Source of the DNA: Escherichia coli O127:H6 str. E2348/69
Lineage (GTDB): Bacteria > Pseudomonadota > Gammaproteobacteria > Enterobacterales > Enterobacteriaceae
Assembly: GCF_000026545.1 (NCBI RefSeq)
Contig: NC_011601.1
Reading direction: 5' to 3' (one strand)
Length of the DNA: 64,000 nt
In this document: positions 54,181 to 54,282 of the stretch, piece by piece
How the letters are laid out: each line of letters begins with the position of its first letter
How positions within the stretch are numbered: position 1 is the first letter of the stretch
Position numbers and translations under genes: made by a program
The notes under the pieces: generated by a model
What the model was told of the DNA's origin: nothing
What the model saw: only the letters and a program-made list of their open reading frames with translations
The model's database searches: none

Positions 54181-54282
54181 GAGAAAAGGGAAAGTGGGAG
54201 CTATGACACAGAGAGAAAAGGGAAAGTGGGAGCTATGACACAGAGAGAAAAGAAGAAGAGAAAAGAAGAAGAGAAAAGAAAA
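54181..54282. repeat. Tandem direct repeats: 2 x 32 bp (gagaaaagggaaagtgggagctatgacacaga) followed by about 2.8 x 13 bp (gagaaaagaagaa)
   Basis: Perfect adjacent copies read directly from the sequence, between the yfcZ terminator and the fadI promoter. Confidence 0.9.

Follow-up and report, generated by a model that had tools for sequence, protein, structure and literature searches.

The tandem repeats between yfcZ and fadI of Escherichia coli O127:H6 strain E2348/69 are, in our assessment, probably the product of two recent and separate slippage duplications in the E2348/69 lineage, by which a predicted CRP operator of the fadIJ promoter was duplicated in phase. This assessment covers the origin and the anatomy of the array; the effect on expression is graded separately below. 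Since the 32-bp unit carries the predicted, conserved CRP operator of the fadIJ promoter, its duplication would double an activator site, beyond lengthening a spacer. The repeats described in the original prediction are real; the CRP operator within the 32-bp unit had gone unrecognised.

Anatomy of the repeat array and of the fadIJ promoter

Tandem Repeats Finder identified a 32-bp period with 2.2 copies (54181–54252) and a 13-bp period with 2.8 copies (54244–54280), both with 100% matches, and no other perfect tandem repeats occur in the window, i.e. the whole 64-kb stretch of DNA that was analysed. In order of ascending coordinates, the array consists of two identical 32-bp units (GAGAAAAGGGAAAGTGGGAGCTATGACACAGA; minus strand TCTGTGTCATAGCTCCCACTTTCCCTTTTCTC), two perfect 13-bp units (54245–54257 and 54258–54270) and a 12-bp partial unit (Table 1), just as had been predicted. 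A stretch of 361 bases surrounding it matches E. coli E2348/69 with 100% identity. Together they span 102 bp of the 225-bp yfcZ–fadI intergenic region and lie, as the original prediction also held, between the yfcZ terminator and the fadI promoter with its FadR box. The exact 32-mer is present in two copies in the window, and none of 100 shuffles yielded any match. All five units (the two 32-mers, the two 13-mers and the partial unit) open with the 8-mer GAGAAAAG, which accounts for the previously noted resemblance of the 13-bp unit to the start of the 32-bp unit; an unbroken purine run of 41 nt extends along the plus strand from 54242 to 54282. Both repeats comprise at least two head-to-tail copies of high identity and differ in copy number from strain to strain (13-mers 1–5, 32-mers 1 or 2), as is characteristic of VNTR loci. 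A second tandem repeat in the window, located downstream of fadJ where sixA is followed by the first fimbrial gene (intergenic, 49674–49721), is AT-rich and imperfect (25 bp x 1.9 copies, 78% matches).

Table 1. Features of the repeat array and its surroundings, in window coordinates.
Feature	Coordinates	Strand	Remarks
fadJ	50647–52791	-	
fadI, acetyl-CoA C-acyltransferase	52791–54101	-	First gene of fadIJ; ATG at 54101
FadR operator, plus strand AAGTGGTCTGACCTGAT, -3 to +14	54128–54144	-	Consensus match; near-invariant in 77 species
fadI transcription start	54141	-	K-12 NC_000913 position 2458531 (Kim et al. 2012, PMC3415461)
fadI -10 hexamer AAGACT, -12 to -7	54148–54153	-	18-bp spacer; inferred from the mapped start site
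fadI -35 hexamer TTGGCT, -36 to -31	54172–54177	-	Near-invariant in 77 species; placed by the mapped start site
32-bp unit, promoter-proximal, ancestral	54181–54212	-	Single copy in K-12, other strains and 77 species
Proximal predicted CRP core TGTGTCATAGCTCCCA	54195–54210	-	Centre 54202.5 = -61.5
32-bp unit, distal, lineage-specific tandem duplicate	54213–54244	-	100% identical to the proximal unit
Distal duplicated predicted CRP core	54227–54242	-	Centre 54234.5 = -93.5
Two perfect 13-bp units GAGAAAAGAAGAA (minus strand TTCTTCTTTTCTC)	54245–54270	-	Spacer of variable copy number, flanked by the terminator and the CRP sites
Partial unit GAGAAAAGAAAA, 12 bp	54271–54282	-	Supplies the yfcZ terminator with its U-rich tract (UUUUCUUUUCUC, minus strand)
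yfcZ intrinsic terminator hairpin, 13-bp stem, 3-nt loop	54282–54310	-	Fold -24.9 kcal/mol, z = -6.1
yfcZ, YfcZ/YiiS family, upstream co-directional gene	54327–54611	-	Stop at 54327
fadL	54977–56323	+	

The perfection of the copies, and nothing else, might suggest an assembly or sequencing artefact, and a remnant of a dispersed family (REP/BIME, ERIC or MITE) might likewise be invoked; we consider the probability of either to be negligible. Three independent complete assemblies of E2348/69 agree, an independent draft genome carries the two 32-bp units, and the array is shorter than a sequencing read. A dispersed family is contradicted by the finding that the unit occurs in the window at this locus only, even with 3 mismatches, and once per genome. 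Assembly error, which the original prediction had named as a possible refutation, can hence be set aside.

The yfcZ terminator exhibits the features of intrinsic termination, namely a GC-rich hairpin (9 GC pairs in the stem) that starts 16 nt past the yfcZ stop codon and is placed directly before the U-rich tract UUUUCUUUUCUC. On the transcribed strand the partial unit of the array forms this U-tract, and the 13-mers would constitute a functionless, pyrimidine-rich spacer. An effect of array variation on read-through from yfcZ, as had been suggested, is unlikely, since the partial unit next to the terminator, and with it the U-tract, has stayed the same. As a separate observation, the centre of the hairpin appears to be flipped between lineages: E2348/69 and K-12 exhibit the form CCTGTCAG-TTG-CTGGCAGG, and the GTDB E. 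coli representative, E. whittamii and O157 the form CCTGCCAG-CAA-CAGGCAGG. When compared with the form of E2348/69 and K-12, the latter matches at 27/29 positions as the reverse complement and at 24/29 positions directly, which suggests an inversion of the hairpin centre by template switching.

The fadI promoter was positioned by conservation and by the published start site of K-12, which defines a 40-nt leader and is supported by just 3 reads (Kim et al. 2012, supplementary file 2, PMC3415461); the same data contain no Klebsiella fadI start. The promoter was not reported by a simple sigma-70 scan, being too weak for the scan thresholds. Within its -10 hexamer, A-11 and T-7 are conserved across genera. 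It has been reported that fadIJ is repressed by FadR and ArcA, and that the FadR operator (consensus aaCTGGTCnGACC(T/A)Gtt) overlaps the fadI start (PMC9329746). The near end of the array is 4 bp upstream of the -35 hexamer, and the -35/-10/FadR block is left unchanged, so that the altered promoter spacing envisaged in the original prediction is not borne out.

Two further observations concern this promoter region. Firstly, the FadR operator carries a G-to-A exchange ~30 bp upstream of the fadI ATG (window position 54132; AAAGTAGTCTGACC in place of AAAGTGGTCTGACC) in a clone that comprises MCJCHV-1, many urinary isolates with MS designations (MS8324) and a record labelled EcST1193. The exact variant is found in 68 of 5,426 complete E. 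coli genomes, the position being near-invariant in the 77 species, and the clone also exhibits a C-to-T exchange in the CRP-site spacer and two 13-mers. Judged from the sequence, the exchange might render FadR a less effective repressor of fadIJ in these strains. Secondly, a PdhR box (cAgcGGTaaaACCtgac) has been predicted for fadIJ by genomic SELEX at K-12 position 2458479 (PMC7660256). It falls in the first fadI codons (54080–54100, codons 1–7), downstream of the start and outside the array.

Each 32-bp unit contains a predicted CRP site, TGTGT-N6-TCCCA, which agrees with the consensus TGTGA-N6-TCACA at 8 of 10 core positions, the G and C contacts included, and is hence non-consensus; a relaxed motif (TGTG-N7-TC.CA) is found 3 times in the window versus 2.3 expected, i.e. 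not above chance. Three independent lines support the site: its conservation, its position relative to the start site, and published work on K-12. In yfcZ–fadI spacers from 77 Enterobacteriaceae species representatives, the columns TGTG....GCTC.CA.TTT are near-invariant, and the sequence between these columns and the terminator is unconserved. A single copy of the motif is found in 75 of the 77 species, and in each of these the distance from its centre to the downstream -35 element TTGGC(T) is exactly 25.5 bp; such a fixed position relative to the core promoter is the pattern expected under purifying selection. The proximal unit holds both the CRP site and the 17-bp spacer to the -35 hexamer. 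By the K-12 start site the two centres fall at -61.5 and -93.5, in keeping with the positions of CRP sites at class I promoters (near -61.5, -71.5, -82.5 or -92.5). The distal predicted site is located 32 bp upstream of the proximal one, which corresponds to about three helical turns, so that both would face the same side of the DNA.

Independent work on K-12 points to the same element. Li et al. (2019, Table S2, PMC6390033) predicted a CRP-cAMP site (AAGTGGGAGCTATGACACAGAG) at -112 to -91 from the fadI ATG, an interval that coincides exactly with window positions 54192–54213. They also found that CRP-cAMP binds a K-12 fadI promoter fragment in EMSA, and that fadI and fadJ are CRP-dependently up-regulated under carbon limitation (PMC6390033), a result adopted in a later review (PMC9329746). 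The fadI site may be a weak one, since it was assigned in silico within a fragment that was EMSA-positive at 300–1200 nM CRP (Li et al. 2019, PMC6390033).

Origin and distribution of the repeat units

Among complete RefSeq genomes, a 16-kb similarity search revealed nothing closely related to E2348/69 (~97% identity for the next best match), and close relatives were located via contigs encoding the exact E2348/69 FadI protein. Two of these, GCA_900448265.1 and GCA_900450255.1, carry one 32-bp and one 13-bp unit, denoted (1,1), and exhibit a single 45-bp gap and 6–8 base differences relative to the window over 15.7 kb (1–2 mismatches in the 4.3 kb upstream of the array, 4–7 in the 11.4 kb downstream). 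The draft genome GCA_001267335.1 is (2,1), with 2 mismatches and one 13-bp gap over 15.7 kb, and represents a strain distinct from E2348/69, because sucrose (csc-type) genes replace the E2348/69 prophage. E2348/69 itself is (2,2). The series (1,1), (2,1), (2,2) is thus seen on nearly identical backgrounds, which implies that the 32-bp duplication came first and that the gain of a 13-bp unit was a second event. The series, together with the (2,1) draft genome, likewise implies that the 32-bp duplication did not arise as a laboratory or assembly artefact. The recent slippage-type expansion put forward in the original prediction agrees well with the existence of near-identical (1,1) relatives and of an intermediate allele. 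A single 45-bp duplication was considered and rejected: it would yield the order 32-13-32-13, and the order observed is 32-32-13-13.

In the K-12-like ancestral sequence, three copies of the 8-mer GAGAAAAG lie at offsets 0, 32 and 45. Mispairing of the first and second copies would have duplicated 32 bp, and a later mispairing of the second and third copies would have duplicated 13 bp. The 8-mer at the unit boundaries is, as read from the sequence, the likely microhomology substrate for slipped-strand events.

The neighbourhood of the array differs between these genomes in other respects as well. From ~58000 to 64000, beyond a formate/nitrite-transporter-family gene adjoining mlaA, the window contains the E2348/69 prophage (integrase and tail genes); at this site the closest relatives carry a csc-like cluster comprising a LacI-family regulator, a glycoside hydrolase 32, a PfkB kinase and a LacY-type symporter. 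The gene yfdF, which in K-12 lies between fadL and mlaA, is missing from that position in the window.

Allele-specific queries were run against the 5,426 complete E. coli genomes, with E-value limits that pass near-full-length matches only. The junction of two 32-mers was found in 3 of them, every one an E2348/69 stock (CP059840.2, ‘variety 2’ and an engineered derivative) with identical sequence. The comparison of 13-mer copy numbers across E. coli that the original prediction had proposed gave a range of 1–5, with n=1 in K-12 and at least two copies (n=2–5) in 90 genomes (1.7%), so that the structure is not invariant. About 70 of the n=2 cases represent one clone with a common SNP, and n=4 and n=3 are found in a horse strain and several mouse strains. 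The K-12-type (1,1) allele, at up to 2 mismatches, is present in 2,522 of the 5,426 genomes.

Individual strains illustrate this variation. All have a single 32-mer, which is followed by one 13-mer plus the partial unit in K-12, by two 13-mers in MS8324 and by five in CFE299. In R4 and O157:H7 (the latter with 2 substitutions in the 32-mer), the 13-mers have diverged into a non-repetitive spacer of the same length class. They have also diverged in FDAARGOS_1291 (1 substitution in the 32-mer), where IS200C is inserted beside the terminator. This element (tnpA annotated; ~3240–3950 of the locus sequence of that strain) lies between the purine-rich spacer and the yfcZ terminator, and puts ~0.7 kb between yfcZ and the fadIJ promoter.

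The 32-mer junction is absent from JGI/ENA metagenome contigs, and of the 49 such contigs that span the locus, 48 are of the (1,1) type and one has two 13-mers. Each of the 77 other Enterobacteriaceae species representatives has one 32-bp copy, and the locus occupies one place per genome (median 1). The locus is hence weakly polymorphic, and the 32-bp duplication is confined to one clone.

These data bear directly on the notion of a contingency (phase-variable) locus, at which frequent gain and loss of units would switch the expression of fadIJ or yfcZ. The copy number indeed varies by strain, with mouse-derived strains at n=3 and n=4. However, the units are long and few, only 1.7% of the genomes depart from one 13-mer, with one clone accounting for most of these, and the three E2348/69 stocks, one of them an engineered derivative, are identical. 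Moreover, the repeats lie upstream of the -35 hexamer, where they affect neither the -35/-10 spacing nor reading frames. With variation that is rare and clonal, and with the promoter spacing untouched, we deem a contingency role very improbable.

It might also be proposed that the repeats encode a small protein or a small RNA, be it the 11-codon frame present in the 32-bp repeat, a 50-codon plus-strand ORF (54178–54330) or a transcript of the purine strand. In line with the original prediction, the 11-codon frame exists (ATG at 54203, TGA at 54236–54238) and a GGGAG precedes an ATG in each unit; furthermore, the NCBI pipeline annotates a 44-aa hypothetical protein on the expanded array of CFE299. 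Yet the GGGAG is separated from the ATG by just 2 nt, and the 13-bp indels shift the frame and the C-terminus, such that the products of K-12, MS8324, CFE299 and E2348/69 differ. The frame is therefore incidental, as had been surmised. Furthermore, O157 and other genera have unrelated sequence at this place, the other genera lack the ORF, and six related assemblies have no gene call at the array. For a small RNA, no Rfam family match was obtained: in a scan of 53000–55500 the sole match was Spot 42, over the terminator, with E = 0.89 and 20 bits versus a gathering score of 80. Coding or small-RNA function thus appears extremely improbable. The CFE299 product (WP_281501462.1; plus strand, 464–598 of the locus sequence of that strain) consists mostly of the 13-bp array, runs antisense through the yfcZ terminator, and is probably an annotation artefact of the repeat expansion.

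Possible effect on fadIJ expression

If the 32-bp slippage duplication copied the CRP operator, the question is what a second operator might do. The 32-bp unit would form the upstream half of the fadIJ promoter, with the CRP-cAMP operator at -61.5, a class I position of the lac type. Upon glucose or carbon limitation, two CRP dimers would bind, each touching an alpha C-terminal domain of RNA polymerase, and fadIJ would be activated more strongly than from a promoter with a single site, with repression by FadR and ArcA intact. Control by the two repressors should be unchanged because the core promoter and the operator are untouched. The 13-mers lie between the U-tract, on their upstream side, and the two CRP sites, so that their number should matter little.

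Such an arrangement has been studied on semi-synthetic promoters. In experiments that Lee & Busby (2012, PMC3445967) reviewed and repeated, CC(-93.5)CC(-61.5) exceeded CC(-61.5) in activity, and activity dropped about four-fold when activating region 1 of the upstream CRP was disabled; a CRP site at -122.5 is inhibitory. These promoters carry consensus CRP sites, whereas the fadI sites are non-consensus. Genome-wide, CRP motifs cluster at -41.5, -61.5 and -93.5. By analogy, stronger CRP activation of fadIJ in the two-unit allele is plausible, and we would put the prospect that the distal predicted copy is bound and raises fadIJ expression at not quite an even chance.

The same slippage event may also be functionally silent, that is, a neutral and recent length polymorphism whose distal CRP copy is unoccupied or has no measurable effect, and this we regard as a serious possibility that nevertheless stays somewhat below an even chance. 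The duplication is restricted to a single clonal lineage, as expected of a neutral recent mutation, and has evolved in none of the 77 species or the 5,423 other E. coli genomes. The CRP site is, moreover, non-consensus, and fadIJ mutants show no obvious phenotype (PMC9329746), which also makes selection on the fadIJ promoter doubtful. On the other hand, the 32-bp spacing is the very arrangement that is synergistic in synthetic promoters, and the two copies are identical, so that the distal one should bind CRP if the proximal one does.

Returning to the two-operator promoter, one may speculate further that, in the EPEC1/E2348/69 lineage, a single slippage step turned a conserved class I CRP promoter with one site into one with tandem sites (-61.5/-93.5), which measurably raises catabolite-controlled expression of the FadIJ beta-oxidation complex and was possibly favoured in the niche of this pathogen. 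We consider this fuller scenario rather unlikely.

Significance and comparison with known systems

E2348/69 is the reference EPEC strain of many laboratories, and its fadIJ promoter has two predicted CRP sites, unlike that of almost all E. coli. An active second site would make the fatty-acid catabolism of E2348/69 respond to carbon limitation more strongly than predicted by K-12-based models, and raised expression would make the locus a natural, datable case of a gain of activator input by in-phase site duplication. A silent duplication would serve only to mark the lineage of the E2348/69 clone. In any event, the alleles (1,1), (2,1) and (2,2) on near-identical backgrounds provide a natural series for the effects of tandem activator-site duplication, and short direct repeats beside a binding site make the duplication of an activator site reachable in one step. 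Taken together, the sequence evidence suggests a modest, strain-specific, regulatory variant.

The constituents of the locus are of known kinds, i.e. an intrinsic terminator, a VNTR of low polymorphism and a fadIJ promoter under FadR, ArcA and CRP control whose CRP site is of class I. In the full-text literature searched, no description of the yfcZ–fadI repeat was found, and the natural in-phase duplication of the fadIJ CRP site, present in E2348/69 and at least one close relative with intermediate alleles preserved, appears to be undescribed there. Intergenic VNTR loci serve for MLVA typing of E. coli and Shigella. The present array shares with them head-to-tail intergenic repeats and copy-number differences between strains, but is distinguished by its low copy number and low polymorphism (1.7% of genomes).

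A natural counterpart in geometry is lac P1, a class I CRP promoter. In both promoters 25.5 bp separate the CRP centre from the first base of the -35 element downstream of it, the spacer measures 18 bp and the CRP site is centred at -61.5, and the context of the right half-site (TAGCTC.C) is similar. The fadI site has two core mismatches. Unlike lac P1, fadIJ is also subject to repression by ArcA and by FadR, which acts at the start site. A lac derivative with an added CRP site at -93.5 was reportedly described by Joung, Le and Hochschild in 1993.

The tandem arrangement itself corresponds to that of the synthetic CC(-93.5)CC(-61.5) promoters (Tebbutt et al. 2002; Lee & Busby 2012, PMC3445967), in which the sites are likewise 32 bp apart at -61.5 and -93.5, and in which the upstream CRP raises activity via contact of AR1 with alphaCTD (PMC3445967). 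The arrangement in E2348/69 differs in being natural and the outcome of a one-step duplication, and in that its sites are non-consensus and predicted. Finally, the fadIJ promoter of K-12 (Campbell et al. 2003; Li et al. 2019; PMC9329746) has the same FadR operator, the same core promoter and the same predicted CRP site, the proximal 32-bp unit of E2348/69 being identical to that of K-12. K-12 and 5,423 of the 5,426 complete genomes have one predicted CRP site, whereas E2348/69 has two.
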